Positions 589 through 31,578 are shown, counted from the first letter of the stretch. The stretch is 50,696 bases of DNA from Gemmatimonadaceae bacterium (GCA_035253695.1 DATFBS010000064.1:1-50696); one strand, 5' to 3'. The notes: generated by a model not told the origin, from the letters alone. Program-made: numbers and translations.

Positions 589-1001
589 TGACCATTCGTG
601 CGCGGGTGTTGGTGGCGGCGCTTCTGGTCGCGGCATGCGACCAACCGAAGGAAGAAGTCCCTTCCGTCGGACAGACACCCATTCAGACCCGCGCCACGCG
701 CGAGGCGCGAATCCGCGAGCTCGAGCAGCAGGCGCGAGCGCTTGTCAGGACCGACGGCTGCGACCAGGCGAATCAATGCGCCACGGCACCGGTGGGCGTG
801 AAGGGATGCGGTGGCCCCCGGAGCTACCTCGTGTACTGTAAAGCGACAACGGATGAGGCAGCGCTGTTGCGCACCCTCGATGAGCTGAAGCGAGTCGAGG
901 AAGAGTACAATCGCGTGGAACAGATCGCGTCCGATTGTATGATGATCCTGCCTCCCGCGGTCCGGCTTGAGGGGCGTACCTGCGCGGCGGCGGTTCCCTG
1001 A
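588..1001 (+). CDS. hypothetical secreted protein or lipoprotein
   Basis: ATG at 588 overlaps the upstream TGA (TGATG), suggesting coupling. N-terminus [19 protein letters not shown] looks like a lipoprotein signal with a lipobox Cys. The ORF-track extension upstream of 588 overlaps the preceding gene out of frame. Confidence 0.5.
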   Translation: MTIRARVLVAALLVAACDQPKEEVPSVGQTPIQTRATREARIRELEQQARALVRTDGCDQANQCATAPVGVKGCGGPRSYLVYCKATTDEAALLRTLDELKRVEEEYNRVEQIASDCMMILPPAVRLEGRTCAAAVP

Positions 1002-1015
1002 CCTTTGCGCAACTT

Positions 1016-1172
1016 CCTTTTAAGAGGCGGTAGCACAGAGACACACCGAGACATTGCACAGAGACACATTGAGGAAGATCAACTGCGAAAGCTTTCCTGA
1101 AGCACTGCAGTGGAGTCCTCGGTGTGTCTGTGTGGAAAGTCTCGGCGTGTCTCTGTGCTACCGCTTTTCAGG
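1016..1172. repeat. long imperfect palindrome (~57-bp arms) built from CACAGAGACA/CCGAGAC units; the loop contains two mini-palindromes (GAAAGCTTTC, CACTGCAGTG)
   Basis: Left arm 1016-1075 is the reverse complement of right arm 1106-1172 with a few mismatches or indels. It lies between convergent genes. The right arm overlaps the last 4 codons of the regulator gene. Confidence 0.6.
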
Positions 1173-3599
1173 CTCGTTGCGCGATGAAGTCATCCGCGCG
1201 GCCCCCACGCGCCTGACGAGCGCCTCGTAGCGCGCGTCGCCGTGTAGCGGCCGCAGCTGCGGATCTACGCCGAGGAATGCCATAGAGTGCGAGCGCTCCT
1301 CGTACGCGCGCTCGAGCAGATCGAGGGCGCGCTCCCGCTCACCGAGCGCTAAATGAACCTTCGCGACCTCGTACTTGGGCACGTACCCTCGTGCGGCGAC
1401 CGTCTCCAGCTCACGCAGGAGCGCTCTCGCTCCGGCACTGTCCCGCGCGACCGCCCGCGCACGGGCGAGCGAGGCGACGAACAGCGTACTGCGATTGGTC
1501 AGCGTCGCGGCTCTCTCCAGCAACGTCACCGACTCGGCCTCGCGGCCGAGCTCCTGTAGTGCCCATCCACGCCAGAGCAGCGCCACAGCGTAGTCGGGAT
1601 CGAGCTCGAGCGTGAGCCGGCACTGCTCGGCTGCGCGCTCGTGCTCTCCAGCGTAATACAACACCCATCCGTGCGCCGCGCTCGCGATCAACGACAACGG
1701 GTCGATCTCCTGGGCGCGTCCCATGGCGCGCACCGCCTCTTCGAATCGGGCACGCACCGTCAGAAAGTTCGCGTACCACTGATACGCGGTCGAATAGCGC
1801 GGCCCGACTTCGATCGCGCGCGTGAACCACTCCTCGGCGCGCGGCCAGTTCCAGTTGTAATAGAGCTCGACGTACCCGAGTGTCGCGTACGGCTGCACCA
1901 ATGCGGAATCGATGGCCATGGCTCGCCGCGCTGCACGCTCCGCTCGCGGGAACGCCTCACGCGGCGCGAGGTAGTCATAGAAGCCCAGGACCGCGTGCGC
2001 GTCGGCGAGGCCCGCGTGCGCGAGCGCATACGTGGAGTCCTTCTCGATGGCCTGCGCGAAATACGCTGCCGCCGCTTTGAGGCCTTCTTCCGTGCGCCGG
2101 TACCACGAGTAGCGGCCTTTCATATACAACGCGTGGCGACCGCGCAGATAAAGATTGTACGCCTCGAGGTCCGTATCGCGCCGGGCTGTTGCCGCCGAAT
2201 CGGCGCGGCCGACGAGCGTCCCCTTGAGAGTCTCGACGATGGACCGCGAGATCTCCTCCTGAATGTCGAACACGTCCTCGAGCTTCCGCTCGTACGTTCG
2301 CGACCAGAGCTGATATCCGTCTAGCGCGTTGGAAAGCCGCGCCGTGATGCGCAGCGTGCTGTCGGCGGCCCGGACGCTGCCGTCGAGCACCGTGGCGACG
2401 CCGAGCTGCCTACCCACCTCACGCACGTCGAGCGTCTTTCCCTTGAACGCGAACGACGACGTGCGGGACGCCACGCGCACGCCCTGCACGCGACCGAGTG
2501 TGTTGATCAGCTCCTCGGTCATACCGTCGCTGAAATACTCGTGATCGTGCGCGGCACTGAGATCGACGAACGGAAGCACGGCGACGCTGGCGCTGCTCGC
2601 TTTACTTCCTTCGGACGCGCGACCGCGCGCGGTCATCGCGACGGCGATCACGATCGCGATGATGGCGGCGGCGACGGGCCACCAGTGTCTTCGCGTGGAG
2701 GGTTGTCTCGCGACGACAGCCGGCGGACTCGGCGTCTGCGTCGGTGGTGCCGACTCCGTCGCGACGCTGGCTGAGGCCGGTGGAGACGGAGCGGGCGCGA
2801 TCGGCTGCGCGCGCATCGATGCTGCCAGCTCCGCCACGGCTGCGTCCGGCTCGGTCCCGAATTCCTCGGCGAGGAGCGTCGCGTGGATACGAGCGTGCTG
2901 GAGCGCCGCGGCCCGGTCACCGGAGCGGTCGAGCGCCCGCATGAGCCTCACCACGACGCGCGAGCTATACGGGTCCTGCGCAGCCAGAGCACGCCACCAC
3001 CGAACGGCCTCGACCGCATTGCCTCGACGTTCGGCACTCTCACTGAGGGACTCGAGTACCCGTGCGTACGCGCGGCCCAGCCGATCGCGCTCGCCGGCAG
3101 CCCACCGCTCGAACTCCTCGGCGTCGGCGAGGAAGAAGCCATCGAGAAAGGGGCCGCCGTACAGCTCGGCTGCCCGCTGCCATTCCCCGCGCTCGATCGC
3201 GTCCTCGAAGTCGCCGACATCGCTCGGCAGCACATCGATCGAAAGGCGAAGGTCGTCACCGGCGCTGATGATCGCCTCCGCCCCAAGAGCCTGGTTCACC
3301 CGATAGATCGAATCGGAGAGGAGGGCTCGGCCGTGTTCGGCGTCCTGCTCGGGCCACAGATAGGCAATCAGCTTGTCGCGACTGACCCCTCGTCCACGGG
3401 CGGCGGCCAGCATCGCCAGCAGGGCGACGCGGCGCCGTTGAGCGGCGCGGCCGGCGAGAGGACCCGCCGGCGTCTGAATCGACGCGCCGCCGAGCAGCTT
3501 GAGTGAGAACACCTTAGGCGTGGCGAGAGCAGGGCGAGAAACGGACGAGAGCGCGCCGAGGCCGCTCCGACATGATACGCGCGCCCCCGGTCCGGGCAA
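1158..3599 (-). CDS. BTAD/SARP-type winged-helix transcriptional regulator with a TM segment, a TolB-N-like domain and C-terminal TPR repeats
   Basis: N-terminal OmpR/BTAD-like region (LKLLGGASIQT...RRRVALLAMLAAA...). One hydrophobic helix (WWPVAAAIIAIVIAVAM). A VLPFVDLS...YFSDGMTEELINTL motif as in TolB_N-like domains, followed by multiple TPR-like repeats. The true start may be an alternative codon downstream of 3599. Confidence 0.7.
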   Translation of the reverse strand: MPGPGARVSCRSGLGALSSVSRPALATPKVFSLKLLGGASIQTPAGPLAGRAAQRRRVALLAMLAAARGRGVSRDKLIAYLWPEQDAEHGRALLSDSIYRVNQALGAEAIISAGDDLRLSIDVLPSDVGDFEDAIERGEWQRAAELYGGPFLDGFFLADAEEFERWAAGERDRLGRAYARVLESLSESAERRGNAVEAVRWWRALAAQDPYSSRVVVRLMRALDRSGDRAAALQHARIHATLLAEEFGTEPDAAVAELAASMRAQPIAPAPSPPASASVATESAPPTQTPSPPAVVARQPSTRRHWWPVAAAIIAIVIAVAMTARGRASEGSKASSASVAVLPFVDLSAAHDHEYFSDGMTEELINTLGRVQGVRVASRTSSFAFKGKTLDVREVGRQLGVATVLDGSVRAADSTLRITARLSNALDGYQLWSRTYERKLEDVFDIQEEISRSIVETLKGTLVGRADSAATARRDTDLEAYNLYLRGRHALYMKGRYSWYRRTEEGLKAAAAYFAQAIEKDSTYALAHAGLADAHAVLGFYDYLAPREAFPRAERAARRAMAIDSALVQPYATLGYVELYYNWNWPRAEEWFTRAIEVGPRYSTAYQWYANFLTVRARFEEAVRAMGRAQEIDPLSLIASAAHGWVLYYAGEHERAAEQCRLTLELDPDYAVALLWRGWALQELGREAESVTLLERAATLTNRSTLFVASLARARAVARDSAGARALLRELETVAARGYVPKYEVAKVHLALGERERALDLLERAYEERSHSMAFLGVDPQLRPLHGDARYEALVRRVGAARMTSSRNEPEKR

Positions 3600-3629
3600 G
3601 ACACCTCACCGCATCTCTCAGGAGACGAT

Positions 3630-4205
3630 ATGCGTATGCCAATCACTGCCACAGTCGCCACGCCTGTACTGGCCGCCAGCGTGGTCGCGATCGCCCTCGC
3701 GTGCGCCGAGCGCCGCGAGCCGACGAGTCCAGCGGTCGCGCACGTGCACGTCGCCGCGAAGCAGACGGCCGCCCCCATTTCCGATCTGGGTCCCAAGCTG
3801 GCCGCGCTCAGGGGCGCGACCGCGCGATATCACGACTTCGCTGCGGCGCAGGCCGATGGATACGGCATTCAGGTCACCGGCTGCATGGAGGACGCGTCCC
3901 GAGGAGGAATGGGCTATCACTTCGGCAAAGGCGACCTGATCGATGGACAGGTGATCGAAGCGCGTCCGGAGGTATTGCTCTACGAGCCACAAGGGAAGGG
4001 GAAGCCGCGGCTCGTCGGGGTCGAGTTCATCATCCCCTTCACCGCGTGGACAGGTACCGAGCCGCCGACGCTTTATGGCCAGACCTTCGCGCGCAACGAG
4101 ACGTTCCAGGTTTGGGCGCTGCACGTCTGGGCGTGGCGGAACAACCCCGCCGGTGTGTTCACGGACTGGAATCCGGCGGTCAGCTGCGACCGCGACAACG
4201 CCTAA
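3630..4205 (+). CDS. hypothetical lipoprotein
   Basis: Signal peptide with LACAE lipobox. No recognisable catalytic motif. Divergent from the regulator gene. Confidence 0.5.
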   Translation: MRMPITATVATPVLAASVVAIALACAERREPTSPAVAHVHVAAKQTAAPISDLGPKLAALRGATARYHDFAAAQADGYGIQVTGCMEDASRGGMGYHFGKGDLIDGQVIEARPEVLLYEPQGKGKPRLVGVEFIIPFTAWTGTEPPTLYGQTFARNETFQVWALHVWAWRNNPAGVFTDWNPAVSCDRDNA

Positions 4206-4217
4206 CAGGAGCCTCTC

Positions 4218-4499
4218 ATGCGACGCTACATGATCGAGCGGGACCTGACGGGCGCCGGCCAGCTCACCGCGGATGAGCTCCGTGGCATCTCGACGAAGTC
4301 ATGTGAGGTGCTCCGTGACCTCGGCCCGGAGGTCCAGTGGGTGCAGAGCTACGTCACCGACGACAAGATCTACTGCGTGTACCTCGCGTCGAACGAGCGG
4401 CTGATCCGCGAGCACGCCAAGCGCGGGGGATTCCCCTGTAGCCGGGTGAGTGAAGTACGGGCAGGGATCGATCCGACGACGGCGGAGCTGAGGCAATAG
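4218..4499 (+). CDS. DUF4242-like small protein
   Basis: 93 aa. Pattern MRRYMIERDL...AGQLT..EL.....KSCEVLRDLGP.VQWVQSYVTDDKIYCVYLA...IREHAKRGGFP matches the DUF4242 family I recall. SD-like CAGGAG upstream. 13 nt after the previous gene. Confidence 0.55.
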   Translation: MRRYMIERDLTGAGQLTADELRGISTKSCEVLRDLGPEVQWVQSYVTDDKIYCVYLASNERLIREHAKRGGFPCSRVSEVRAGIDPTTAELRQ

Positions 4500-4500
4500 G

Positions 4501-4617
4501 TCCCAAGGGTCCTCAGGGTCCTCAGGGTCCTCAGGGTGCGTAGTGCTCAGGGGGTTCACACTCTGAGGACCCTGAGGACCCTGAGGACCCTGAGGACCCT
4601 GAGGACCCTTGGGACTA
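4501..4617. repeat. palindromic element made of tandem 9-mers: (GGGTCCTCA)x3, loop, (TGAGGACCC)x5
   Basis: Direct reading of 4501-4617. Arms are reverse complements with unequal repeat numbers. The loop sequence GGGTGCGTAGTGCTCAGGGGGTTCACACTCTGAGG is conserved in the second copy at 17947-18058. It sits between convergent genes. Confidence 0.75.
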
Positions 4618-5760
4618 GGGCTTTTGACTCGTCTCCACCGGCATTTCGAACTTCACCGGCAGCTGCACCAGCTGTCGCACGCGCTGGCCGCCGAGCAAAG
4701 CCGGATGGAATCGAGCGTTCTGCAGCGCGCGGCGTACGGCGTCGGTGAAGAGCGCGTGGCTCGTCGAGATCGCCGAGATGCTCTCGAGAACCACGAGGCC
4801 GCCTGTGTCGACCACGAACTCCACGAGGACCTGACCGGTCACGCGCTCACGGAACAGGGAATCGGGATACGCGGGCCGCACGGTCGAGCTGCTGTCGGGG
4901 CGCGCGACGTGATCGACCTGGTCGGCGGTGAAGAGCTGGCGCTCCTCGACCTGCTTGGTCAGCTCGGCCGGTGGGGCAGCGGCGCGCCGGGCCTTCCGCC
5001 GACGCTCCTCGAATCCCGTCCAGATCACGATGGCGCCGCATGAGCCCCCACCCCGGACCCACCGGAATTCGGGAGGAACGGTGGCCACGCCGAGGTAGAC
5101 CTCGATTCCCTCGATGATGTAGGGGTCCAGCGCGTCGAGGTCGAATTCTCCGGCGGTCGCCGGGAATCCGTCGAGCCAGACGAGCGGCGCACAACGCATC
5201 CCGCGGAACCGAACGACGTTCGAGAACGTCGACGAGTAGATGCGAGCGCCTGGGACGCTGCGGAACAGGTCGGTCACCTGCGACGGATTCCGCTGGTCGA
5301 TCTGCTCGCGCGTGATGAAATGCCCGCCTGACGAGCGTGAGCGCCGCTGGTAGAATCCCGCCAGCCGTCCATGTTCATCGAACCGGCGGTTGCCGCGGAC
5401 GATCACAGCGGCAAGTGACTGGGCAAGGGGGGTCACGATGACGGACATCGCTGCCGCCTCGTTGGCGGCGATCGCGATGCTGGCGACCGTGGGGATGAAT
5501 CCCAGCCGCCGGACGCCGACGGTGAGCGTGCCCGCGGGCACGTTCGTTAGGCGAAACTCGCCCTGGGCGTTGGTGTGCGCCCGCAGGTTGGTGCCGACGA
5601 TCGTGATCTCGGCTCCGGCGATTCCGGCTCCGGATGAGTCACGCACCATCCCCGCCACGGTACCGCGCGCCGACGGCTGCTGGGCGCGGAGGGACGCGGG
5701 AGTGAGCGCGAGCGCGCCCCCTGCCAGGCCAATGGCGGCCACGCCGCACAGACGACGCAT
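4615..5760 (-). CDS. TonB C-terminal domain protein with N-terminal CarboxypepD_reg-like and plug-like domains
   Basis: The likely start is MRRLCGVAAIGLAGGALALTPASLRAQQ (signal peptide) at 5760. The ORF-track start at 5844 adds 28 aa with no signal-peptide character. CarboxypepD_reg-like β-sandwich (GTVAGMVRDSSGAGIAGAEITIVGT...). C-terminal TonB-like motif (RVTGQVLVEFVVDTGGLV...RQLVQLPVKFEM). Confidence 0.6.
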   Translation of the reverse strand: MRRLCGVAAIGLAGGALALTPASLRAQQPSARGTVAGMVRDSSGAGIAGAEITIVGTNLRAHTNAQGEFRLTNVPAGTLTVGVRRLGFIPTVASIAIAANEAAAMSVIVTPLAQSLAAVIVRGNRRFDEHGRLAGFYQRRSRSSGGHFITREQIDQRNPSQVTDLFRSVPGARIYSSTFSNVVRFRGMRCAPLVWLDGFPATAGEFDLDALDPYIIEGIEVYLGVATVPPEFRWVRGGGSCGAIVIWTGFEERRRKARRAAAPPAELTKQVEERQLFTADQVDHVARPDSSSTVRPAYPDSLFRERVTGQVLVEFVVDTGGLVVLESISAISTSHALFTDAVRRALQNARFHPALLGGQRVRQLVQLPVKFEMPVETSQKP

Positions 5761-5946
5761 GGGACCACCTCCGCCTGCGAGGGTAGGGTCGGGGATGAGG
5801 GGGCGCAAGGGCCAGGCCGTCAGCGCAGTGTAAAGGCAGGCCAACGCTGAGGTCCGCGAGGTAGTGGAGGTAGTCCAGGCGATCGACGAGAAGTCGCCTG
5901 ATCAGCTTGGTCTACCTGGACTCCCTGGACAACCTGGGCAACCTCT

Positions 5947-6876
5947 CTAGGGCGTAATGTCTATCGCGAGATGAAGCTGTAGGTATCGCTCGATGACTCG
6001 AGCGAGAGAAGAAGCGAATCTCGCTCTGTTCTCTTCCGTATCCCGAACTCCAACTCGGTTCGACTCGATCTGCACCGCGCAGATCTGACCCCCTCCCCGA
6101 CACCCATGCACCGCGGTGTTATAGCCGCCGGCGAAGTACTCGGCGTCGCCGGGGTCGGGCGTCGAGTCGCTGGGAACGGCGGGGAAGCCCTCCGCCTCGA
6201 GCAGCGCGCCAAGGCTCGAAGGGCCGCGCAGCAGCTCGGAGAACGACAGTGGGGAGAGCACCGATATCGTTCGGATGCTGCTCGAGCTCTCGAACGCGGG
6301 GCGGCTGTCCAGAGAGTCGTTCGGCTTGCGAAGATCTCCCGCGTCCAGGAGATAGCCGAGCTCCAACCGCTGGATCGCGTGGCCATGGCCGTGCAGGTCG
6401 AGGTAGAGGCCGCCCGTGAGATCCCTGCTGATCGCGTTCTTGGCTTCGGCGATGAACTGGTGGAATTCCTGCCACGCGAGCTGGGCCTCCGCGTCCCCCT
6501 GTGCGCCCTCGACGATCTCGCGGTTCGCGTCGAGCTTCACGCGATGCAGGTGCACGATGACGACATGCGCATGCTTTCCCGTCAGCCTGACGAGAGCGGA
6601 ATCGGCCGCGCGAGCCAGCTCGCCCGTGTTCAGGTCGGTGACGGTCGTCCCGTACGTGCGATCGGGAATCTCCGCCGGTCGAAGCGATCCGCCGTGGGGC
6701 GCAGTGAGGATGACCGGAAGCTCTCCGGCGATGTACTCGATGTAGTTGTTGCGTCCGAAGTAGGAGGTGCCCGGCGTATAGCGCGCCGTGTCCACCGGGT
6801 CCACGCGCGGCGACGCCGGAGAGGCGCACGCCGACAGCAGGACGAGGAGTCCGAGCGACGAGCGAGCGTTCAGAAC
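5947..6876 (-). CDS. N-formylglutamate amidohydrolase (FGase)-fold zinc hydrolase, secreted or lipoprotein
   Basis: Motifs [19 protein letters not shown] and HGHGH are typical of the FGase/succinylglutamate desuccinylase-like fold. Lipoprotein-like N-terminus [10 protein letters not shown]. The exact start is uncertain: no ATG/GTG/TTG sits immediately before the signal peptide. The ORF-track extension to 7422 overlaps the E1 gene and is spurious. Confidence 0.5.
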
Positions 6877-8981
6877 GCCGCGATCTCCTGCACGACGCGC
6901 TTGAAATCGTCGATCTGCGGGAGGATCGCGTCTTCGAGCGACGGCGCGTAGCCGACGAACGTATCGGTCGACGCAATGCGCATCACCGGCGCGTCGAGCC
7001 AGGCGAAGCATTCCTGCGCGATCGCGGCGGCGATCTCGGCGCCGTATCCCCACGACAGCGAGTCCTCGTAGGCGACGATCACGCGATTCGTCTTCTTCGT
7101 CGATGCGAACACCGCCTCTCGATCCCACGGCGAAAGCGTGCGCAGATCGATCACCTCGACATCTGGACCGCCAGCCTCGGCGATCTGGTTCGCGGCGACG
7201 AGCGCGCGCTGCACCGTTGCACCGTAGGTGACGATGGTGATGTCCTTCCCGTCGCGGACCACCTTCGCCTTGCCGAACGGAATCATGAAGTTCGGCCCGG
7301 GGTACCGCGATTTGTTGTATGTCTGCCGATAGAGATGCTTGTGCTCGAGGAAGATCACCGGATCGTCGCAGCGAATCGCCGTGCGCAGCAATCCGTTGGC
7401 ATCGAGCGCGGTCGCGGGACACACGACGCGAAGCCCGGGCGTGTGCGTGAACAGCGACGCGCCGGTCTGCGAGTGGTAGACGGCACCGCGGATGTAGCCA
7501 CCGTAGGTCGTGCGCACGACGACCGGCGCGGAGAACGCGTTATTCGACCGCCAGCGCATCGTGGCCAGCTCGTCGCGGAGCTGCATGTATGCCGGCCAGA
7601 TATAATCGAAGAACTGAATCTCGACGACCGGCTTCAATCCGCGGATCGCCAGACCAACGGCGCGACCGACAATGTTCGCCTCGGCGAGCGGTGAGTTGTA
7701 GACACGGGTGCCGCCGAACTCCTTTTGCAGTCCCCACGTCACCTTGAAGACGCCACCCTTGCCTTTCACCTTGCCCATGTACTGCTCGCGTGACAGGTCG
7801 GCGACATCCTCACCGAACACCACGATCTTCTCATCGCGCCGCATCTCATCCTTCATGCACGCGTTGAGCAGATCGACCATCGTCGTCGGCTCGCCGGCGA
7901 ACTGTGGATCGTCCTCCGTGTCGAACGCATCGCTAGTGGGATCGACGTCGGGCGAATAAACGGCGAAGTACACCGTGTCAGCGGCGGGCTGCGGCTGGGC
8001 GAGGGCGTCGTCGGTCGCGGCAAGGATCTCGGCGTCCACCTCCTGACGAAGTCGATCGAGCTCATCCTCCGTCGCCATTCCCTCCGCCACCAGCCAGCGC
8101 GGGAAGGTGATGAGCGGATCGCGCTGCGCCTCCGCCTCGCGCTCCTCGGGAGGCTTGTAGAAGACCTCGTCGTCGGACTGTGAATGCGAGTACGGACGAA
8201 TGACGCGAGCGTGCACGAACGCCGGGCCCTTCCCTTTGCGCGTGTGATCGACGGCTTTCTTCATCACCTCGTATGAGGCGACCAGATCGCACCCGTCGAC
8301 TTCCAGGATCAACAGATTCGGGAAGCCGCTCACGAGCTTCGAGATCGAGCCACCCGCTGTATTCACCTCGACCGGGACGGAAATCGCGTAGCCGTTGTCC
8401 TCCACGAGGTAGACGATGGGCAGCGACAGATTGCAGGCGGTGTTGAGGGATTCCCAGAACTCGCCTTCGCTGGTCGTGCCATCGCCGGTGGTGACGAGAA
8501 CGATCTCATCTTTCTGGAAACCTTCGGTGAGGCCAAGCGCCTTCGCGCGAACGATTGCCTCAGCGGACCCGACTGCCTGGAGGAACTGCGTTCCGGTCGG
8601 CGACGAGGTGGAGACGATGTTCAGCTCTTTTTTTCCCCAGTGGCTGGGCATCTGCCGCCCGCCGGAGTTGGGATCGATCGCCGCGCCAACCGCCGAGTAG
8701 AGCATCTCCGCGGGCGTCATGCCGAGCTGCAGGCACAGCGCGCGGTCGCGGTAGTACATGTAGAACCAGTCATGCGCCGACCGCGTAACCATGCCAGCGG
8801 CGGTCAGGATCGCCTCATGTCCCGCGCCGGAGATCTGGAAGAAGATCTTATTCTGCTTCTTGAGCTGGATCTCTTTGTCATCGAGCCGGCGCGAGAGGTA
8901 CATCGTGCGATAGGCGGCGACGAGCTGATCGCGCCCGAGCTCCGATGTCCCTTTCCGCTCCGCTTTCGTTTGAGTCGCCAT
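6870..8981 (-). CDS. 2-oxoacid (pyruvate/branched-chain) dehydrogenase E1 component, fused alpha and beta subunits, TPP-dependent
   Basis: N-terminal E1-alpha TPP-binding region ([17 protein letters not shown]...GAGHEA...[15 protein letters not shown]) and C-terminal E1-beta transketolase-like region ([11 protein letters not shown]...[14 protein letters not shown]...). The start is set at [10 protein letters not shown] (ATG ~8981). The 39 upstream codons in the ORF track are translation of the repeat element. Confidence 0.8.
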
Positions 8982-8997
8982 AGAACTTGAAGATAGT

Positions 8998-9095
8998 CGT
9001 CGAACGAGGAACGAGGAACGAGGAACGAGGAACGAGGAAGCCGTCGCGAGCTCCGCGCCGCGTTTCCTCGTCCCTCGTTCCTCGTTCCTCATTGG
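8998..9095. repeat. palindromic element: (GAACGAG)x5, 22-nt loop, (CCTCGTT)-type units x4
   Basis: Direct reading. It lies in the divergent region between the E1 and HIT gene starts. The unit GAGGAAYGAGG is shared with the elements at 20053-20133 and 38488-38590. Confidence 0.65.
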
Positions 9096-9134
9096 CACCT
9101 TCCGTGCTTCTTCGAGTGGTACCAGGAGGGTCTC

Positions 9135-9617
9135 ATGGGAACGCAGTCAGGACACTGCATCTTCTGCGACATCATCAAGGGCGCGGCCGAGGTCTCGGTG
9201 TGCTACGAGGATACCGAGTCGATCGCGTTCATGGACATCCAGCCGGTGAACGCGGGCCACGTTCTTGTCGTGTCGCGGCAACACTTCGAGTCTTTCCTCG
9301 ACTTGCCGAAGAGTCTGGGGACGCACCTGTTCGAGGTGGCAATGCAGCTGGCGCCGGCCATTCGAAAGGTGTCGGGGGCCGACGGCATGAACCTCATCGT
9401 CTCGAGTGGAGCCTCGGCCGGTCAGGATGTGTATCACTTTCACATCCACCTGATCCCCCGGCGGCAGAACGATGGATTCGACGTCCCGCTCCCATTCGCC
9501 AACTCGGAGATGCCCGACCGTACGGTGCTCGACATGATGGCGGCGCGGATCATCAGCGCGTTACGGGATCCCACACGCGCGCGTCCGACGCCCCGTGAGG
9601 CGGCGGCCGTTCCGTGA
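9135..9617 (+). CDS. HIT (histidine triad) family protein
   Basis: HFHIHLIP histidine-triad motif. Zn-finger-like CIFCDI at the N-terminus. SD AGGAGGG 6 nt upstream. Confidence 0.8.
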
Positions 9618-9845
9618 CCTTTTTCGGGATGGCACCGTCGAAAATATGAAAGGCGGACGCGCCGCGCCCTTGCGCCCCGACGTTCCGCTCCGCATTCGTA
9701 AGGCGCGCGGTGCTCCACCGTACCCGCGCCGATCAACGACTGGAGGCACATGAGCGTCGATCGACGACCCTCTTCCGACCGAACAGACCGTCGGCCCACC
9801 GTCGTCGTCCTACGCTGGTGCACTCTATCCACCATGCCACATCGC

Positions 9846-9892
9846 CCCGCCCGGGTTCCCCATCCGGCGCGGGGCGACGTGCTTTTCGGCGA
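9846..9892 (+). terminator. GC-rich hairpin (TCGCCCCGCCCGG..CCGGCGCGGGGCGA) followed by CTTTTC; terminator or attenuator-like
   Basis: Inverted repeat read directly. A short T-run follows. It ends ~10 nt before the SD (GAGGTG) of the HNH gene and ~230 nt after the HIT gene. Confidence 0.3.
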
Positions 9893-9898
9893 GGTGCA

Positions 9899-10303
9899 AT
9901 GTCTCGGCACGGCATTCATCGCATCTGCCTTCCCCGCGCCCCGCGTGGCCTTCTCCGGCGGCGCCGTTCCTCCCACCTCCGTCACGTCGATTTCAAGCGA
10001 GCGCTCAAGCGCGCCGTAATGCGCGACTGCGGCCGGCGCTGCGTGTACTGCGGTGCCGGGCTCGAGCATGATCATGCGACCATCGATCACGTGCACCCGC
10101 GCGCGCGGGGAGGCATCACCGCGTACGGGAACCTCGTCGCCGCCTGCGCACCCTGCAATCGACTGAAGGGTGACATGCTGCCGCACGATTTCTTCGTCCG
10201 ATATCCGCTGGCGGGGATGAACTTTCTGTTGTACGCGCGGGTGGTGCATCGCGCCTTGAAGCGCGGCGCGCGACGCGCGGTGAGTCTGGCCCTGGCGGCG
10301 TGA
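9899..10303 (+). CDS. HNH endonuclease domain protein
   Basis: CVYCG...HDHATIDHVHP...GG...NLV.ACAPCNRLKGD matches the HNH C-x2-C/H-N-H/C-x2-C pattern. The start is chosen at the ATG with a GAGGTG SD (9899). The ORF-track start at 9710 is probably an extension and 10019 is an alternative. Confidence 0.55.
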   Translation: MSRHGIHRICLPRAPRGLLRRRRSSHLRHVDFKRALKRAVMRDCGRRCVYCGAGLEHDHATIDHVHPRARGGITAYGNLVAACAPCNRLKGDMLPHDFFVRYPLAGMNFLLYARVVHRALKRGARRAVSLALAA

Positions 10304-10313
10304 AGTAGGAACT

Positions 10314-10434
10314 AGTGGTCAGGGGTCAGGGATCAGGGGGTGTCAGGGAGGAGGTTGAAGGAGAGAACGGCGCGCTGAAGTTCTCTCCTATGACCTATTC
10401 CCTGACACCCCCTGATCCCTGACCCCTGACCACT
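10314..10434. repeat. 37-bp near-perfect inverted repeat of (GGTCAGG/GATCAGGG) units with a nested inner hairpin (GGAGAGAAC...GTTCTCTCC)
   Basis: 10314-10350 is the reverse complement of 10398-10434 with one mismatch. The inner 9-bp stem is at 10361-10389. It lies between convergent HNH and nadE genes. Confidence 0.75.
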
Positions 10435-10446
10435 AACTCCTGGCTC

Positions 10447-12288
10447 TCAATAATCCACCGGCCTTAAGTACGACTCGCCAATCGCATTCGGGCTCACCAT
10501 CGCGACCGTGGGCAACCGGCGCTTCCAGTGCGTACCCTCGAGGCGCTGCCTGACGAGCTCCACTTCCTTGCCCTCGAAGCCGCGCGCCACCAGTTCGGCG
10601 GGCGCGTAGCCGCTGAGCAGCCATTGGAGAATCCGATCGGCTTTCTCATAGGTGATGCCGAGATCCCCCTCGTCCGTCTGACCGTGGATGAGATCAGCCG
10701 TGGCGGGCTTTTCGACGATGGCCTTCGGAACGCCGAGATGGCGCGCCAGCTGCCAGACTTGCGTCTTGAACAGGTCGCCAAGCGGATTCACCGGAGGCGA
10801 GTCGTCGGCGTGCCAGGTGAAATAGCCGAACAGGCGCTCCGTCTTGTTCCCCGTGCCTAACGGAATGGCCTGGTACTTGGACGACAGATCGAAGAGCGCG
10901 ATCATGCGCACGCGCGCCATCACGTTGCCGCGACGGCCCGGGGACGCATCGGACTCGGCGGTGAGATACCCGTCCACCGCCGGGGAGATGTCGAGCGTTC
11001 TTCCCGTGATACCGAGCGCGTCGATGACGAGCTGCGCGTGCTCCAGGCTCTCCCTGCTCGAGGTGCGATAGGGCAGTCGCACACCGATGACGTTTTCGGG
11101 GCCGAGTGCGCGCGCCGCGAGAAAGGCGGTGACGGCGGAGTCGACTCCGCCGGACAGGCCAATGATCCCCTTCGAGAATCCGCGGCGCTTCACTTCCTCC
11201 TCGATGAAGTGCACGAGCCATTTTTCCGTCAGGCCGCCGTCGATGTCGAGCGGCGGTGGCCCGCCCGCCCCTTCGAGCGGCGCGACCTGAACGACCCGCA
11301 GCGGACCGCGCGCGGGCGCCTCGACATCGGGATGCACCAACGCGTGATCCCCGTTCTCACTGGGCGGATCGAAGGCGAGGGGTGGCGCCTCACGAGACTC
11401 CTTCGCGAGCAGGCTTTCCATGAGATGCGGCATCGCCGTGCGGAGATCGGCGAGCAGTGGCATGTCGGCGCGCGCACGGGTGAGGTCGGCGAGGTCGAGG
11501 GGCAGCGTCACCAGCGCTTCATCCCAGAGCGGTGCGCGAGTGCGGACGTCACCCTTCGGGCCCGAAATGAGCGACGCCCCGGAGAAGATCTTTCCCCCCT
11601 CACTCCCGGCGAGGTTCGCGAAGGACACGAAGACGCCATGCTCCTCGGCGATGTCCCGGATGAGACGCTCCCATCGCGCGACACTCGCGGGGCCCGGAAT
11701 CGCGTCTTCACGAGGCCACGCCCCCCGCGCCGGTGCCGCGCTCGAGACGAAAATGACCTGCGCACCATCGAGCGCGGCGAGCGTTCCCGAGAGCGAATGC
11801 CAGGCGTCTTCGCAGACGAGAATCGCCGCGCGTCCCCACGATGTATCGAAGGCGTGAAACTCGTGGCCGCGCTCGACGAACCGCTCCTCATCGAACAGCC
11901 CGTACGTCGGAAGGAACACTTTGCGGTGTACGTGCAGCACATCCGGTCCCTCGGGGCCGAGTGTGACGTACATCGCGCTGTTGAAGAGCGTGTTCTGGAA
12001 GATCTCGTAGAAGCCGACGACGACGTCGAGGCTCGCCAGCCCGTTGGTCGCACCGCGCCACGCGTCCTGCAGGTCGCGCGCGAGCGTTCCCGCGGTGACG
12101 GCGAGATCCCGCACGCCGCCTTCGACGAAGTACCCGGTGAGCGCGGTCTCGGGGAGATGCAACACCTGCGGCCGCGGGCGCATGCCGTTCACCTGCGCGA
12201 ACACTTCGCGGAGCCGCGTCAGATTCGCGGCGTAGTCGCCCTTCGCGGGCTTGATCTGAGCAAGGGCGAGGTGAACGAGGGGGGGCAT
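10447..12288 (-). CDS. nadE: glutamine-dependent NAD+ synthetase (N-terminal CN-hydrolase domain and C-terminal NAD synthetase domain)
   Basis: Nitrilase-superfamily region (ILVCEDAWH). ATP-pyrophosphatase region with SGGVDSAV P-loop and GTGNKTE..FGYFT motifs. 613 aa. Confidence 0.85.
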   Translation of the reverse strand: MPPLVHLALAQIKPAKGDYAANLTRLREVFAQVNGMRPRPQVLHLPETALTGYFVEGGVRDLAVTAGTLARDLQDAWRGATNGLASLDVVVGFYEIFQNTLFNSAMYVTLGPEGPDVLHVHRKVFLPTYGLFDEERFVERGHEFHAFDTSWGRAAILVCEDAWHSLSGTLAALDGAQVIFVSSAAPARGAWPREDAIPGPASVARWERLIRDIAEEHGVFVSFANLAGSEGGKIFSGASLISGPKGDVRTRAPLWDEALVTLPLDLADLTRARADMPLLADLRTAMPHLMESLLAKESREAPPLAFDPPSENGDHALVHPDVEAPARGPLRVVQVAPLEGAGGPPPLDIDGGLTEKWLVHFIEEEVKRRGFSKGIIGLSGGVDSAVTAFLAARALGPENVIGVRLPYRTSSRESLEHAQLVIDALGITGRTLDISPAVDGYLTAESDASPGRRGNVMARVRMIALFDLSSKYQAIPLGTGNKTERLFGYFTWHADDSPPVNPLGDLFKTQVWQLARHLGVPKAIVEKPATADLIHGQTDEGDLGITYEKADRILQWLLSGYAPAELVARGFEGKEVELVRQRLEGTHWKRRLPTVAMVSPNAIGESYLRPVDY

Positions 12289-12424
12289 CGCCTTAAAGAT
12301 GGTCGAGATCGGCGTTGGAGGCCAGCTTTCGGGTCTAACGCCAAAGACGTCCCAATGTCGGAATACGGAGTTCAGAACTCAGACATAACGATGGGACCCG
12401 CAATCCCCGGTGTCGACGCCGCGG

Positions 12425-13888
12425 TCACCTCGTGATGAACGGAGGAGGCTTGATCGCATTCACGCATTGAGTATCTACGCCTGTCAGGCCACCCCGCCTG
12501 ATGAACTCCACGACGATCGCTTCGACGCATTTCTCCGCCCCTGCGTGTGCCATGCCCGGCACCGTGATCACGGTCGCGTTAGGCACGGCGCTGGCGACCG
12601 CGGCAGCGAGCCGAGGTGGCGTCACCGGGTCCAGCGCTCCGGAGATGACGAGGACGGAAAGGGGGCGCGTGGCGACCGGTTCGACGCCGGGCGGCCTCGC
12701 ATGCGGCCACACGGCACACGCCTCCTGGTACATCCGCAGGCGATAGTCCCCAAGGAAGGTCGCGTGTCCGTGTCCCGGCGGACGCGCTTCCATCGCATCC
12801 CTGGGAAGCCTGCTATCGACGCAGGCCACACTCAGGTGCGCGCCGACATCGAGCTGATCGAACACCACTCGGCTGAGCTCGTACGCCACTCTCACGAACG
12901 GAGTCCAGTCTCCGCCGTGAGCGGCATGAACGACTATCGGAATGCGACGGGACAGGCGCGTCGAGTAAAGCATGAGTCGGAGGCGATCGGCGAAGACGCC
13001 GCGTGTCAGACTCACGGTGATGCTGTCGCGGGAGCGCGGATGCTCCACGCGCAACGACATCGGTCCGCGGTCGAACCGCTCGAGCAGCGCATTCAGCTCG
13101 CTTCGTAAGCGCGGAAACGAGCCTCGACAGAATGGATCGGCTGCGCAATCCAGCATGACACGCTCGAGTGCCGCTTGTGCGTCACCCGCGGCCGAGCGTG
13201 GAAGCGACGCGCCGAGCGGCATGGCACCCTGCAGCACGACGGTCCGGAGACGGTCCGCGTGCCTTCCCAAGTAGTCCAGGGCGACCTGCGTGCCGTAGGC
13301 GCTGGCATCGAGATCGATCGAGGAAAAGCCGAGCGCGCTTCGCACTGCTTCGAGATCGGCGGCGGCATTGGCGGTCGTGTACTGCGTCAGGTCGGCACGG
13401 CGGGAGAGGCGCAACGCGCACGCCCGGACTGAATCGGAGGGGAATTGGTCGCCGAGGTACGCGCCGACGTCGCCGGCCGTTCCGTAGAACTCGCAGCGCA
13501 ACGCATTCGAGGCCCCGGTTCCGCGCTGATCGACGAGCACGATGTCGTGCGTCGCCCGCGTCGTCGAATGCGAAGCGGCAACCAGGTCGGCGAGCGGTGT
13601 GGCCGCCAAGCCGGGGCCACCGACCAGATAAAACAACGCCTGCCGCGGGGCGTTCGCGGGAGCACGCGAGGGCAGAATGACGATCCGAAGCGGTATCGTG
13701 CGGCCACCCGTGATCGCCCGGTTCTCGGGGACCTCGAGGGTGGCGCAGCGGACCTGTTCGTCGAGCCCGGGTACGCGACAGGGACTGGACGACAGCGCTG
13801 GCTGGGCGAATCCGACTCTTACCGCACAGACTCCGAGTCCGGCCAATGTTGCCGCCCAGCCGGCGTGCCGCGTTAGCATGGTCATCAC
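12425..13888 (-). CDS. secreted alpha/beta hydrolase (proline iminopeptidase/TAP-like S33 family)
   Basis: Signal peptide. GGPG oxyanion motif (FYLVGGPGLAA). Nucleophile elbow-like SAYGTQVA. C-terminal TAP-like region. Confidence 0.65.
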   Translation of the reverse strand: MMTMLTRHAGWAATLAGLGVCAVRVGFAQPALSSSPCRVPGLDEQVRCATLEVPENRAITGGRTIPLRIVILPSRAPANAPRQALFYLVGGPGLAATPLADLVAASHSTTRATHDIVLVDQRGTGASNALRCEFYGTAGDVGAYLGDQFPSDSVRACALRLSRRADLTQYTTANAAADLEAVRSALGFSSIDLDASAYGTQVALDYLGRHADRLRTVVLQGAMPLGASLPRSAAGDAQAALERVMLDCAADPFCRGSFPRLRSELNALLERFDRGPMSLRVEHPRSRDSITVSLTRGVFADRLRLMLYSTRLSRRIPIVVHAAHGGDWTPFVRVAYELSRVVFDQLDVGAHLSVACVDSRLPRDAMEARPPGHGHATFLGDYRLRMYQEACAVWPHARPPGVEPVATRPLSVLVISGALDPVTPPRLAAAVASAVPNATVITVPGMAHAGAEKCVEAIVVEFIRRGGLTGVDTQCVNAIKPPPFITR

Positions 13889-13978
13889 TCAATCCTCGCC
13901 GCGCGTGTCGATCGTCACAAGCTATGAGCCGTACGTGCTGATACCATTCGGGTCCCTTCGGGGTATTTTTCTGGACGT

Positions 13979-16024
13979 ATGAATCGCTCGATCAGTCCTC
14001 GCCTCCTTCTCGTCACAGCGCTGTTCGCGCTCCCGGCGCTTTCAACGCCGTTGCTGTCCGCGCCTGTGCTGCTTGCACAGGAGACGGAAAGCTCCGAGCC
14101 GTGGCGTCTCATTCAGCCGCCGCAGTCCTCGCTCGTCGTTGCGCGTGATGGCTCGCTCATCGGTGAGATCGGGAAGGAGTGGCGCACATCCGTATCCATC
14201 AAGTCGCTGCCGAGGTACGTACCGCAGGCGTTCGTCGCCATCGAGGATCACCGCTTCTACGAGCACGGTGGCGTCGACGTCATCGGGATCGCCGGCGCGA
14301 TCAAGGATGCGGTCACCGGCTCACCGCGCGGCGCGAGCACGATCACGCAGCAGCTCGTCGGGAACATGCATCCGGAGGAGATCGATCGCCGCGATCGGTC
14401 GCTCAGCCGCAAGGTTCGCGAGCAGCGCGCCGCGATCGAGATGGAGAAGCGCTATTCGAAGGATGAGATCCTCGAGGCGTACCTGAATCAAATCGCGTTC
14501 GGCCACGGCTGGTACGGCATCGAGGCGGCGGCACGGCACTACTTCGGGAAAAGCGCGGCGCGTCTGACGCTCGAAGAAGCGGCCACGCTGGCGGCGCTTC
14601 CGAAGGGGCCGGCCATCTACGATCCCATTCGTCATCCCGACCGCGCGAAGAGCCGTCGCGATGAAGTACTCGGGCGAATGGCGGCCAACGGATTCATCAC
14701 CCGCGCGCAGGCGGATGCGGCGAAGAAGCGCCCCCTCGTCGTTGCGCCCAACATGGGGATGTCGGCACCGTCGCCGTACTTCGTGGATGTCGTTAGGTCT
14801 CAGGCGGAGCGCGCCGGGGTACCGGTGATGAATGGGGGATACCGGATCGTCACGACGCTCGATGCCGCGTTGCAGAACGCCGCCGTCGAAGCGCTGACGG
14901 AGGGCACGCGTCGCGTCGAGGGGCTACCAGGATACGGGCAGCCGACCTATGCGAAGCGTGCGCGCGGCCAGCTCGACTATTTGCAGGGCATGGTCGTGTC
15001 GCTGGACGCTCTCACCGGAGAGGTTCGTGCGCTCGTCGGCGGACGTGATTACGCCGAGTCGCCGTTCAATCGAGCGGTCAACGGTGTTCGTCAGCCGGGA
15101 TCGGCGTTCAAGCCGATCGTCTATGCGGCAGCCGTCACCGACAGCATGCCGGCGAACGCGATCGTTCCCGATACCGCGATCGCGATTCCCTTGCCGGACG
15201 GTACGATGTACGAGCCAGGGAACGCCGACGATGAGTTCCTCGGGCCCATCACTGTTCGCGAGGCGCTGGTGCGCTCGCGCAATCCCGTCGCCGTGCAACT
15301 CGGGCTGTTGGTGGGAATGGATTCGGTCGCGTCCTTCGCGCGCCGTATGGGCATCGAGTCGCAGATCGTGCCCGTGCCATCGTCGGCGATCGGGGCCTCG
15401 TCGCTGCGCCCCATCGAACTCGTCGCCGCGTATTCGGCGTTCGCCACGTTAGGTGTGGCGGTCGAGCCGCGCTACATCACGCGCATCGAGGATCGCACCG
15501 GTCGCCCCGTGTGGACGCCGGAGCCGAAGCCGCCCGCCCTCGCGATCGATCCGCGGGTCGCCTTCATCGTGCGCGACATCATGCGGGAAGCCGTGGAGCG
15601 GGGAACGGGCTCATGGGTCCGAAGGCTGGTCGACCCGCGGGTTCCCGTGGCGGGGAAAACGGGCACGACGAACGACAACACCGACGTGTGGTTCGTCGGG
15701 ATGACGCCGGAGCTGGTCGCGGGGGTATGGCTCGGATTCGACCGTCCGCGGCCGATCGCCCGCGGCGCGGGAGGCGGGACGTACGCGGCCCCCATCTTCG
15801 GTCAGATGATCGCGAAATACTACGAGGGCAGAGCGGTCGGTACGTGGACGCCGCCAGCGGGTCTCGTGTCGGCCGAGCTCGATCGCGCAACCGGCCTGCT
15901 CGCCGACGCGTTCACGCCGGATGAGCGCCGCTATACGGAGTACTTTCTCGAGGGGACGGAGCCGATCGAGCTGCGGCCGACTCCGTGGATGATATTCCAG
16001 TACGGGCCACTGGGTGGTGCTTGA
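13979..16024 (+). CDS. class A penicillin-binding protein (bifunctional GT51 transglycosylase/transpeptidase, PBP1A type)
   Basis: GT51 motifs (EDHRFYEHGGVD, GASTITQQL, RKVRE, KDEILEAYLN). Transpeptidase motifs (SAFKP, SRN, KTGTT). Confidence 0.85.
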   Translation: MNRSISPRLLLVTALFALPALSTPLLSAPVLLAQETESSEPWRLIQPPQSSLVVARDGSLIGEIGKEWRTSVSIKSLPRYVPQAFVAIEDHRFYEHGGVDVIGIAGAIKDAVTGSPRGASTITQQLVGNMHPEEIDRRDRSLSRKVREQRAAIEMEKRYSKDEILEAYLNQIAFGHGWYGIEAAARHYFGKSAARLTLEEAATLAALPKGPAIYDPIRHPDRAKSRRDEVLGRMAANGFITRAQADAAKKRPLVVAPNMGMSAPSPYFVDVVRSQAERAGVPVMNGGYRIVTTLDAALQNAAVEALTEGTRRVEGLPGYGQPTYAKRARGQLDYLQGMVVSLDALTGEVRALVGGRDYAESPFNRAVNGVRQPGSAFKPIVYAAAVTDSMPANAIVPDTAIAIPLPDGTMYEPGNADDEFLGPITVREALVRSRNPVAVQLGLLVGMDSVASFARRMGIESQIVPVPSSAIGASSLRPIELVAAYSAFATLGVAVEPRYITRIEDRTGRPVWTPEPKPPALAIDPRVAFIVRDIMREAVERGTGSWVRRLVDPRVPVAGKTGTTNDNTDVWFVGMTPELVAGVWLGFDRPRPIARGAGGGTYAAPIFGQMIAKYYEGRAVGTWTPPAGLVSAELDRATGLLADAFTPDERRYTEYFLEGTEPIELRPTPWMIFQYGPLGGA

Positions 16025-16041
16025 GATCGTTTAGCTAAACT

Positions 16042-16154
16042 TCCGAAGACGTCGGACATCAGACGTCAGAGTTCAGATGTCAGAAACCGAAACCGCACTA
16101 GGCAACGAGGTGTCTGACGTCTGACCACTGACGTCTGATGTCTGAGGTCTTCGG
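16042..16154. repeat. imperfect palindrome built from GACGTCAGA-type units (~42-bp arms)
   Basis: 16042-16083 is approximately the reverse complement of 16111-16154. It sits directly after the PBP gene and overlaps the ORF-track start of the next gene. Confidence 0.6.
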
Positions 16155-16181
16155 ATGTGTCTCTTCTCGCAAACCATCGCA

Positions 16182-20092: not shown

Positions 20093-20133
20093 TCCTCGTG
20101 CCTCGTTTTCCTCATTCCTCGTTCCTCGTTCGC
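20053..20133. repeat. palindrome AGGAACGAGGAATGAGGAAG / CTTCCTCATTCCTCGTGCCT plus a tandem extension of the right arm (GAGGAAYGAGG family)
   Basis: 20053-20072 is the reverse complement of 20083-20102 with one mismatch. A further direct repeat runs to ~20133. The deacetylase start codon (~20090) lies inside the right arm. Confidence 0.65.
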
Positions 20134-31224: not shown

Positions 31225-31329
31225 GTCGCCGAAGGTTTGGGGACGCTCGGCTCCGCGACAGAGGCAATGTGACGAACTGGCCGCGCCATGGAGTGGGTTG
31301 TCACTAGCCAGATGCCATCAAGACCTACA

Positions 31330-31546: not shown

Positions 31547-31578
31547 GCCTGTCGCCTCACAAGCCCCGGCAGAGAAGA

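Follow-up and report, generated by a model that had tools for sequence, protein, structure and literature searches.

The three long palindromes at about 1007-1183, 10307-10441 and 16039-16158, here called elements A, E and G, are probably not one-off local inventions. Judging from sequence comparison, they are likely to be copies, similar rather than identical, of fast-evolving dispersed families: REPIN/MITE-like hairpins that would act as terminators or 3'-end stabilizers and whose arms would evolve by slippage and template switching. They lie in a window (the whole stretch of DNA that was analyzed, 50,696 nucleotides) originating from a soil Gemmatimonadaceae genome with a G+C content of 62-68%. 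The initial annotation had presented the palindromes as unique to their loci, each built from a private tandem unit, and had proposed either slippage with template switching or strong selection for bidirectional terminators as their cause. The slippage/template-switch component and the terminator idea appear to survive from that reading, now within a picture of dispersed families. Since bacterial genomes are compact, a clade with about one quarter of its intergenic DNA in long palindromic repeats needs explaining. A literature search found no description of such elements in Gemmatimonadota.

The palindromes themselves are readily recovered by a repeat finder, with arms of 49, 62 and 50 nt and a complementarity of 88, 89 and 86% for A, E and G, respectively. 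Folded as RNA from the + strand they reach -102, -119 and -80 kcal/mol, corresponding to z-scores of -12.9 to -14.2 against dinucleotide shuffles (-9.5 to -16 when both strands are considered). The window as a whole holds eight palindromic regions of at least 60 nt, compared to none in each of 30 dinucleotide shuffles, and palindromic elements make up ~26% of its intergenic DNA. Rfam gave no match at gathering score across the whole window, and a permissive search around A returned only sub-threshold generic miRNA hairpins (28.6 bits against a gathering score of 90).

Element A illustrates the family behavior best and is composed as follows.

1007-1017, no strand: left outer inverted repeat, degenerate (GCGCAACTTCC; family consensus CGCGCnACGAGCC, from the alignment of nine copies)
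1027-1075, no strand: 5' arm, purine-rich, with the head GCGGTAGC followed by CACAGAGACA-type units
1076-1115, no strand: loop core with the mini-palindromes AAAGCTTT (1088-1095) and ACTGCAGT (1104-1111), kept among dispersed copies
1116-1164, no strand: 3' arm, holding the TAG stop codon of the regulator gene (CTA at 1158-1160), then TTTT at 1165-1168
1171-1183, no strand: right outer inverted repeat GGCTCGTTGCGCG, encoding part of the regulator end (…RNEPEKR*) on the minus strand
1158-3512, minus strand: BTAD/Trans_reg_C/TPR regulator gene, whose 3' end enters element A

On its left side A follows a + strand gene ending at 1001 (TGA stop codon at 999-1001), beginning 6 nt after it; on its right side the minus-strand regulator gene runs into the element. 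The overlap that had been noted with this gene is genuine, as its stop codon lies in the right arm and its last ~7 codons in the outer part of A, and both mini-palindromes reported for the loop are present. The palindrome had been placed at 1016-1172. In full it reaches further, to about 1007-1183, because the aligned copies carry an extra outer inverted repeat beyond the main stem. A ~10-nt repetition does not reach significance in the window copy when gaps are disallowed (p = 0.09-0.36), but is clear in the family consensus as four repeats of CACAGAGACA.

When JGI metagenome contigs were searched for exact matches to the terminal 20-mer of A, 10 contigs were returned, representing nine other loci after two pairs of same-locus contigs were merged. 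These copies match the window only across about 1008-1184, with 78-83% identity, and their flanks are without homology; two of them lie 6 kb apart on one contig (L083). A is thus a multi-copy family at unrelated loci rather than unique to its locus. In the alignment the head GCGGTAGCACAGAGACAC and the loop core are conserved, the segment GCGGTAGC is invariant in 8/9 copies and the 13-bp outer inverted repeat (CGCGCnACGAGCC … GGCTCGTnGCGCG) is present in 7/9. The family consensus measures ~195 nt compared to ~177 nt for the window copy (1007-1183). Its main stem is flanked by A4 and T4 tracts, and its fold comprises 52 pairs, five of which show compensatory changes among the copies. One copy (L087) is minimal and has retained the outer stem alone. 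The contigs with A copies also hold the window's other palindrome families. A loop core and an outer inverted repeat shared between copies would not be yielded by convergent evolution, and recent common ancestry of copies across sites is already indicated for A. A plasmid or phage origin was rejected: blastn with A against a plasmid collection gave no match, and neither an exact A motif nor an exact G motif occurred in viral contigs.

To place these elements among relatives, palindromes were surveyed in the window and 80 loci from related genomes (1.17 Mb), a long palindrome being defined as a palindromic region of at least 60 nt in a blastn-based scan. Gene calls in this survey are composition-based and were made in this analysis; they agree with the deposited calls on L001, a metagenome contig 99.77% identical to window positions 2776-16258. 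L001 came from an exact-protein look-up with nadE, which, together with a NadE scan covering one genome per species, assigns the window to soil Gemmatimonadaceae. Loci L002-L005 encode NadE proteins with about 90% identity and share 81-85% nucleotide identity with the window in the flanking genes, L002 and L005 being 93% identical to each other in these genes. The remaining loci (L006-L081) belong to more distant Gemmatimonadaceae or Gemmatimonadales. L001 is too close to the window to be informative beyond a mild excess of substitutions inside palindromes (4/31 substitutions in 3.4% of the sequence, p = 0.02). Exact-protein look-ups with three flanking genes, aimed at near-identical strains across site A or G, matched no record.

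Element G is located between genes transcribed in the same direction and thus not in a convergent spacer.

13979-16024, + strand: gene for a class A penicillin-binding protein (PBP1A), stop codon at 16022-16024; G begins 15 nt after it
16039-16088, no strand: 5' arm of AGACGTC / GTCAGAC heptamers (TRF array at 16047-16084)
16109-16158, no strand: 3' arm with GTCTGAC heptamers at 16112-16150, overlapping the predicted start of the downstream + strand gene (16155)

Its unit had been read as a 9-mer. The period is actually 7 (shuffle p < 0.0002), and the unit is therefore a heptamer. In L003 and L005 an ortholog of G follows the PBP gene. A second spacer, between an abhydrolase gene and nadE (site F), holds paralogous copies in L002, L003 and L005; these three loci have two G-type sites per ~20 kb. 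Termini are shared between copies of one genome (ACGGCAAAGA in L005, CCGsAGACGTCAGG in L003), and such copies resemble each other as much as orthologs do (87% vs. 76-84%). Uniqueness to the locus, as first supposed, is largely contradicted by these orthologs and paralogs.

Element E fills the whole spacer between two convergent genes.

About 10019-10303, + strand: small HNH gene, TGA stop codon at 10301-10303; E begins 4 nt after it
10307-10368, no strand: 5' arm with GGTCAGG / GATCAGG heptamers (TRF array at 10317-10339), then GGGGGTGTCAGGGA and the inner stem GGAGAGAAC at 10360-10368
10380-10441, no strand: 3' arm with the inner stem GTTCTCTCC at 10380-10388 and CCCTGAC heptamers at 10409-10442
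10447-12288, minus strand: nadE (NAD synthetase), stop codon at 10447-10449, 5 nt past the end of E

The nested inner hairpin that had been described for E is confirmed by the pairing of GGAGAGAAC with GTTCTCTCC, and the element is 7-periodic (shuffle p = 0.002-0.02). A single ortholog, with the same inner hairpin, was found in L002. Moreover, single elements in L003 combine the GTCAGGG unit of E with the GTCAGAC unit of G, and heptamer arrays of the form nnCAGnn number 33 in the fetched loci compared to none in a shuffle. What is established for E is one ortholog and a GTCAGnn heptamer class in common with G. Neither does each palindrome own a private unit, as a TCAG core is common to E, G and the 9-mer family of the window (GGTCCTCAG). 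Taken by element, the alignments establish occurrence in several copies within one genome for A, support it well for G and suggest it only indirectly for E.

Comparison of orthologous spacers bears out the expectation that the palindrome is kept while the sequence of its unit changes between species. This holds for three sites.

Site E, window and L002: GTCAGGG type
Site E, L003 and L004: 9-mers GGTGCTCAG, the family found at window 17948-18067
Site E, L007: GGGATTA
Site E, L012: CTGACGTCTGAA type
Site E, L010: plain palindrome
Site E, L011: none
Site B (window 4499-4615), window: GGTCCTCAG
Site B, L003: GAGGAAT type, a family present in the window at 38495-38583
Site B, L005: GTCGAGGnn
Site D (divergent spacer, window 9002-9093), window: GAACGAG
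Site D, L004: GACCGAG
Site D, L003: TGCGGAT
Site D, L002 and L005: GAATGCGGAA

Site F adds gain and loss of whole elements, being occupied in L002, L003 and L005, empty in L004 and reduced to a decayed remnant in the window. Between L002 and L005 the element at this site is 72% identical, compared to 93% for the flanking genes. Eight pairs have changed on both sides and all are still paired, none has changed on one side only, and the same G-to-T change is present in 4/5 units. At site E, the window and L002 differ by one unit, mirrored in both arms, and a one-arm deletion of a 23-nt unit separates L090 from L091, which sample the same A locus. Unit number thus changes by slipped-strand mispairing and both arms evolve together. 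Quasi-palindrome template-switch mutagenesis, described by the Ripley model, has reportedly been studied in E. coli by Lovett and colleagues. By analogy, the mirrored arm changes would fit quasi-palindrome template switching, perhaps reinforced by selection for pairing.

Slippage, and probably template switching, hold as processes that shape the arms (the deletion, the mirrored units, the compensatory pairs), but not as the local origin of unique palindromes. That each palindrome was made in place from a tandem repeat by these two processes, and is unique to its site, appears unlikely to us. Slippage and arm-to-arm copying are indeed seen, orthologous spacers of different species hold different units, and 17 of the 58 intergenic heptamer arrays lack an exact inverted partner, implying that arrays can precede palindromes. 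A local origin does not explain, however, why the termini, loop core and outer inverted repeat of A recur together at nine other unrelated loci, nor why G-type elements at different sites share genome-specific termini. The occupants of site B in L003 and of site E in L003 and L004 are families of the window as well, which looks like replacement and not like new invention. In situ generation could still describe the first birth of each family.

Two structural events at these sites may be read differently, with the palindromes as attC-like or fragile recombination sites that mediate gain and loss of gene blocks. In L005 a gene for a 788-aa protein with a Big_1 domain lies between the two arms of the site E palindrome, and in L004 the 3.6-kb block between A and B (about window 1000-4615) is missing and the outer genes adjoin; a conserved structure with a variable sequence is also an attC-like pattern. 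We regard this role as very improbable. The neighbors (nadE, PBP1A, E1 dehydrogenase) have housekeeping functions, keep their synteny and occur in both orientations, no integrase is found among the Pfam-scanned genes, element ends carry no GTTRRRY / RYYYAAC core sites, and the support consists of two anecdotes. An integron attC site in the strict sense was rejected, since core sites, integrase and cassette organization are all missing.

As to a mobilizing function, Pfam found no transposase, RAYT or Y1_Tnp domain in ~26 window genes and 10 neighbors of A copies; since a genome carries just one copy of such a gene, this negative weighs little. Insertion sequences were likewise absent from all fetched loci, and target-site duplications are present neither around the aligned A copies nor at the site F element when compared to the empty L004 site.

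Across the survey, among the 50 long palindromes not located at an edge (53 in all), 48 are intergenic, while only 11% of the DNA is intergenic (p~1e-43). Long palindromes are present in 21/173 convergent, 19/385 co-directional and 8/186 divergent spacers; the scan of inverted repeats against gene ends that had been suggested thus reveals an enrichment between convergent genes (21/173 vs. 27/571 other spacers, odds ratio 2.8, p = 0.0012). Their distance to stop codons is typically -9 to +17 nt. They often occupy the whole spacer, and some span the stop codons of both convergent neighbors (offsets -1/-1, -3/-3 or -9/-9). The window and the relatives nearest to it hold 1.6-1.9 of them per 10 kb, compared to 0.27 per 10 kb in distant family members, where 21/72 loci still have at least one long palindrome.

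Such placement invites an explanation by function alone, in which strong bidirectional terminators are selected separately at each gene end, with neither mobility nor common ancestry. The association with stop codons, the enrichment in convergent spacers, the lack of canonical terminators and the ordinary short GC hairpins that more distant relatives have at such sites are all in its favor. We nevertheless judge pure convergence to be improbable, given ~80% identity over ~180 nt, unpaired loop included, between unrelated loci, the occurrence of elements in divergent spacers too, and the fact that hairpin selection predicts neither tandem 7-mers nor a G-rich first arm.

A role at transcript ends is compatible with dispersal, and the elements probably mark such ends, as their position suggests. 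For the window, the premise that U-tract terminators are lacking is borne out: motifs of a hairpin with a T-run number 6 compared to 8.9±3.5 in shuffles, and 9 compared to 8.5±2.8. A terminator scan detected none of A, E and G, and its matches were at shuffle level, mostly inside genes and not at gene ends. Behind the stem, A has a T4 tract, while E and G have none; with A4 and T4 around its stem, the A consensus looks like a bidirectional terminator. To our knowledge, stems of 50-60 bp far exceed the length required by any intrinsic terminator. In 19 elements from co-directional spacers, neither fold energy nor G:U counts showed a consistent bias between sense and antisense, the sense strand being the more stable one in about half of them. 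The advantage of the + strand fold at A and G is therefore not general, and, with no sense-strand excess of G:U wobbles, no feature singles out selection at the RNA level. Termination is an unlikely role for the 8/53 elements located in divergent spacers.

Most intriguing are two regularities, the preference for heptamers and the arm polarity. Intergenic tandem arrays favor period 7 (n = 58), with 22 arrays of period 14 and 25 of period 9, whereas genic arrays favor period 12 (n = 110; period 7, n = 9). An inverted partner lies within 260 nt for 41/58 of the intergenic 7-mer arrays. In addition, the 5' arm is purine-rich with G exceeding C in 46/53 long palindromes (p = 4e-8), compared to no arm bias in short intergenic hairpins (22 vs. 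25). Although these tallies count orthologous sites more than once, the bias persists among distant independent loci (24/31). Arrays adjacent to a stop codon (within ~15 nt) are G-rich relative to C on the sense strand in 25/26 paired cases and in 16/16 cases without exact inverted partner. The need for a hairpin does not predict this polarity rule.

The nearest precedent appears to be the inverted pairs of GGGAATC heptamer arrays in Xanthomonas. X. campestris and X. axonopodis contain 70-75 pairs per genome with a potential to form stem-loops; the G-rich array comes first, 0-50 nt after stop codons, and has been interpreted via G-quadruplexes, while the arrays do not occur at the same genes in two related species and their mechanism is unexplained (Rehm et al., 2015, PMC4692102). 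Both systems thus consist of intergenic, stop-adjacent tandem units of 7 nt in convergent arrays that begin with the G-rich one. Xanthomonas relies on essentially a single unit (GGGAATC / GGGANTN), compared to dozens of unrelated units here, several per genome and some of 9-10 nt (~10 nt in A). Many of the present units have no G-runs and most cannot form quadruplexes. Finally, the present elements have conserved non-repeat termini and cores, behave as dispersed families and reside in Gemmatimonadaceae, a different phylum.

This match in layout and position, together with the sense-strand G excess in both paired and unpaired stop-adjacent arrays, would also fit a switch between G-quadruplex and hairpin, as proposed for the Xanthomonas repeats; function would then reside in the G-rich 3'-UTR array, and its inverted partner would modulate it. 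The 5' arm of E indeed holds four G-runs of at least three (GGGG…GGG…GGGGG…GGG), a G-quadruplex-type motif, as does the 9-mer family. Among the three elements, however, four such runs occur in E only; the units of A, G and many further families (GACGTCA, GAACGAG, TGCGGAT, CACAGAGACA) lack G-runs but show the same architecture and polarity, and hairpins as stable as those predicted (-80 to -119 kcal/mol) would prevail over a quadruplex. We hold such a switch to be decidedly unlikely.

A somewhat speculative thought, which we put forward with little confidence, is that the primary feature may be a rule for gene ends: a tandem array with a period of ~7 nt that begins a few bases from the stop codon and whose sense strand is rich in G and purines. 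Palindromes would in that case be secondary, formed by the head-to-head meeting of two arrays or by the mirroring of one. Such a rule would point to a dedicated 3'-end process, e.g., a unit-adding polymerase or template slippage on both ends of a break, since addition of units at both 3' ends would give a polarity like that of head-to-head telomere fusions. Alternatively, a heptamer-periodic RNA- or ssDNA-binding protein could define transcript ends. The same rule could underlie the heptamer excess in Xanthomonas, cyanobacteria, Beggiatoaceae and Bacteroidetes.

Heptamer repeats are known from these last three groups in the form of TAACTGA, whose origin is unexplained (MacGregor, 2015, PMC4679880). 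The cyanobacterial STRR and TAACTGA heptamers resemble the present arrays in being intergenic and tandem, with several unit types per genome in some taxa. They are mostly direct arrays, often upstream of start codons, with inverted pairs being rare, whereas the arrays described here are mostly paired and stop-adjacent.

Regarding dispersal, REP/REPIN elements offer the closest parallel in size and location. In Pseudomonas, Enterobacteria and Stenotrophomonas they are mobilized by RAYT transposases, and in enterobacteria REP elements act as terminators or as blocks to 3' exonucleases. Like them, the elements described here are multi-copy extragenic hairpins of about 100-200 nt that lie at gene ends, form lineage-specific families and are devoid of target-site duplications. 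A carries GTAG near its 5' end (within GCGGTAGC), in contrast to the ends of E and G. The overall hairpin has two inverted arms around a spacer, but each arm is a tandem array of 7-10-nt units, whereas a REP is a single short imperfect palindrome. In addition, several unrelated families exist here side by side, one taking the place of another at orthologous sites. Bacterial MITEs such as Correia, RUP and Nezha are likewise short, non-autonomous, dispersed and intergenic, and can provide neighboring genes with stop codons or terminators. They share terminal inverted repeats with the present elements (the outer repeat in A; E and G are palindromic up to their ends), yet here the whole element is palindromic, internally tandem-repetitive and without target-site duplication or a known parent insertion sequence that has matching ends. 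With the hairpin-only ('I-shaped') or bidirectional terminators of high-GC bacteria the elements have in common a GC-rich hairpin directly after the stop codon that convergent genes share, and a weak or absent U-tract, apart from the A4/T4 tracts of the A consensus. The present elements differ in being multi-copy, with stems 5-10 times as long that are built from tandem repeats and polar in composition.

Combining these observations, we propose a model in which one clade of soil Gemmatimonadaceae abounds in non-coding, dispersed families. Each element would consist of a G/purine-rich 5' arm of tandem units, usually 7 nt and sometimes 9-10 nt long, then a core that lacks repeats and forms a small hairpin itself, and finally a C/pyrimidine-rich 3' arm complementary to the first arm. 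When transcribed, the hairpin may end or stabilize transcripts arriving from either side, thereby replacing U-tract terminators, as the position of the elements suggests. Arm complementarity would be maintained by intrastrand template switching (quasi-palindrome correction), which carries a change from one arm over to its partner, and selection for pairing may help. Via some transposase or recombination between copies, families would spread to new gene ends and displace one another. The mobilizing agent, the preference for 7-nt units, the G-rich-first polarity and the role in divergent spacers fall outside this model.

The elements unite features that are usually seen apart, namely REPIN/MITE-like families, heptamer arrays and terminator-like placement, and add two clean regularities: the G-rich 5' arm (46/53) and the stop-adjacent arrays that are G-rich on the sense strand (41/42). 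They thereby provide a tractable system for the heptamer over-representation in several phyla and for transcript ending in high-GC bacteria without U-tracts. For genome annotation it is relevant that they can give neighboring genes their stop codons and C-terminal residues. Evolving several-fold faster than the flanking genes, they are candidate strain markers for abundant but poorly cultured soil bacteria. They also break short-read assemblies, and contig ends coincide with these elements.

Besides the tandem-unit palindromes A, E and G (window 1027-1164, 10307-10441 and 16039-16158), our repeat and palindrome scan identified seven more elements of this type in the window:

Window 4499-4615, tandem-unit palindrome (site B)
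Window 9002-9093, tandem-unit palindrome
Window 17948-18067, tandem-unit palindrome
Window 20054-20131, tandem-unit palindrome
Window 31327-31552, tandem-unit palindrome
Window 35549-35737, tandem-unit palindrome
Window 38495-38583, tandem-unit palindrome

They comprise a 9-mer family with units GGTCCTCAG / GGTGCTCAG (two copies), a 7-mer family with units GAACGAG / GAGGAAT (three copies, one of which lies in a divergent spacer) and a composite, longer family of 190-226 nt that includes TGACACGGA 9-mers (two copies). When A, E and G are counted as well, the palindromes cover approximately 26% of the intergenic DNA of the window.

Arrays are also found at gene ends without a palindromic partner. 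An unpaired array of 3.4 copies of ACCTGGACA (window 5914-5944) adjoins the minus-strand gene 5947-6804, with 2 nt between it and the stop codon, and the sense strand of this gene carries its G-rich side; the polarity rule for stop-adjacent arrays is thus obeyed although no palindrome is formed. In the more distant relative L007, a convergent spacer (5620-5744) carries two differing arrays that face each other head-to-head: TCGGGAG x9 follows the first stop codon, and CCTATTCCCTAATC x3 precedes the second. They are not complementary to each other, and each is G-rich on its own gene's sense strand. This layout suggests that arrays are linked to gene ends one by one.

A 3.6-kb block of the window (~1001-4615), encoding a BTAD/TPR regulator and two small genes, is flanked by palindromes A and B. 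The block is missing from the near relative L004 (15737-15820), where the outer genes adjoin, and L002 has different DNA in its place, so that the indel boundaries coincide with the palindromes. L005 has a GTCGAGGnn palindrome at its ortholog of site E; its arms (11850-11885 and 14275-14310) lie 2.4 kb apart, and between them a gene (ORF 12004-14370) encodes a 788-aa protein with Big_1 (Ig-like) domains, which looks as if it had been inserted at the palindrome centre. In the window, the E-site palindrome is directly adjoined by a small HNH-endonuclease gene (10019-10303), convergent to nadE and kept across many Gemmatimonadaceae (orthologs in L002-L012). Between nadE and the abhydrolase gene (window 12289-12424), the window retains only a remnant, GTCTGAGTTCTGAA, of the G-type palindrome by which this spacer is filled in L002, L003 and L005.

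Three copies of the dispersed family A element adjoin the 3' ends of genes for TPR-containing proteins, namely the BTAD/TPR regulator (window 1158-1183), a Ser/Thr kinase-TPR protein (metagenome contig L083, 239-290) and a TPR protein (L084, 765-800). The codons for the last residues of all three, R[DN]EP..E[KR][RQ], lie inside the element, and their TAG stop is the TAG within the family A head GGTAGC. The association could reflect chance, an insertion preference or gene ends supplied by the element.

Short-read contigs of relatives stop at, or at most ~100 nt from, palindromes G and A (the start of L001 corresponds to window ~16258, the end of L003 to window ~1100), and several other long palindromes are also found at contig edges. 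Assemblies are probably broken by these elements, which are likely under-represented in MAGs. When the window is compared with the 99.77%-identical contig L001, 4 of the 31 substitutions fall inside palindromes (window 4499-4615, 9002-9093, 10307-10441 and 16039-16158) that make up 3.4% of the alignment (p=0.02), which hints that the palindromes evolve faster already at strain level.
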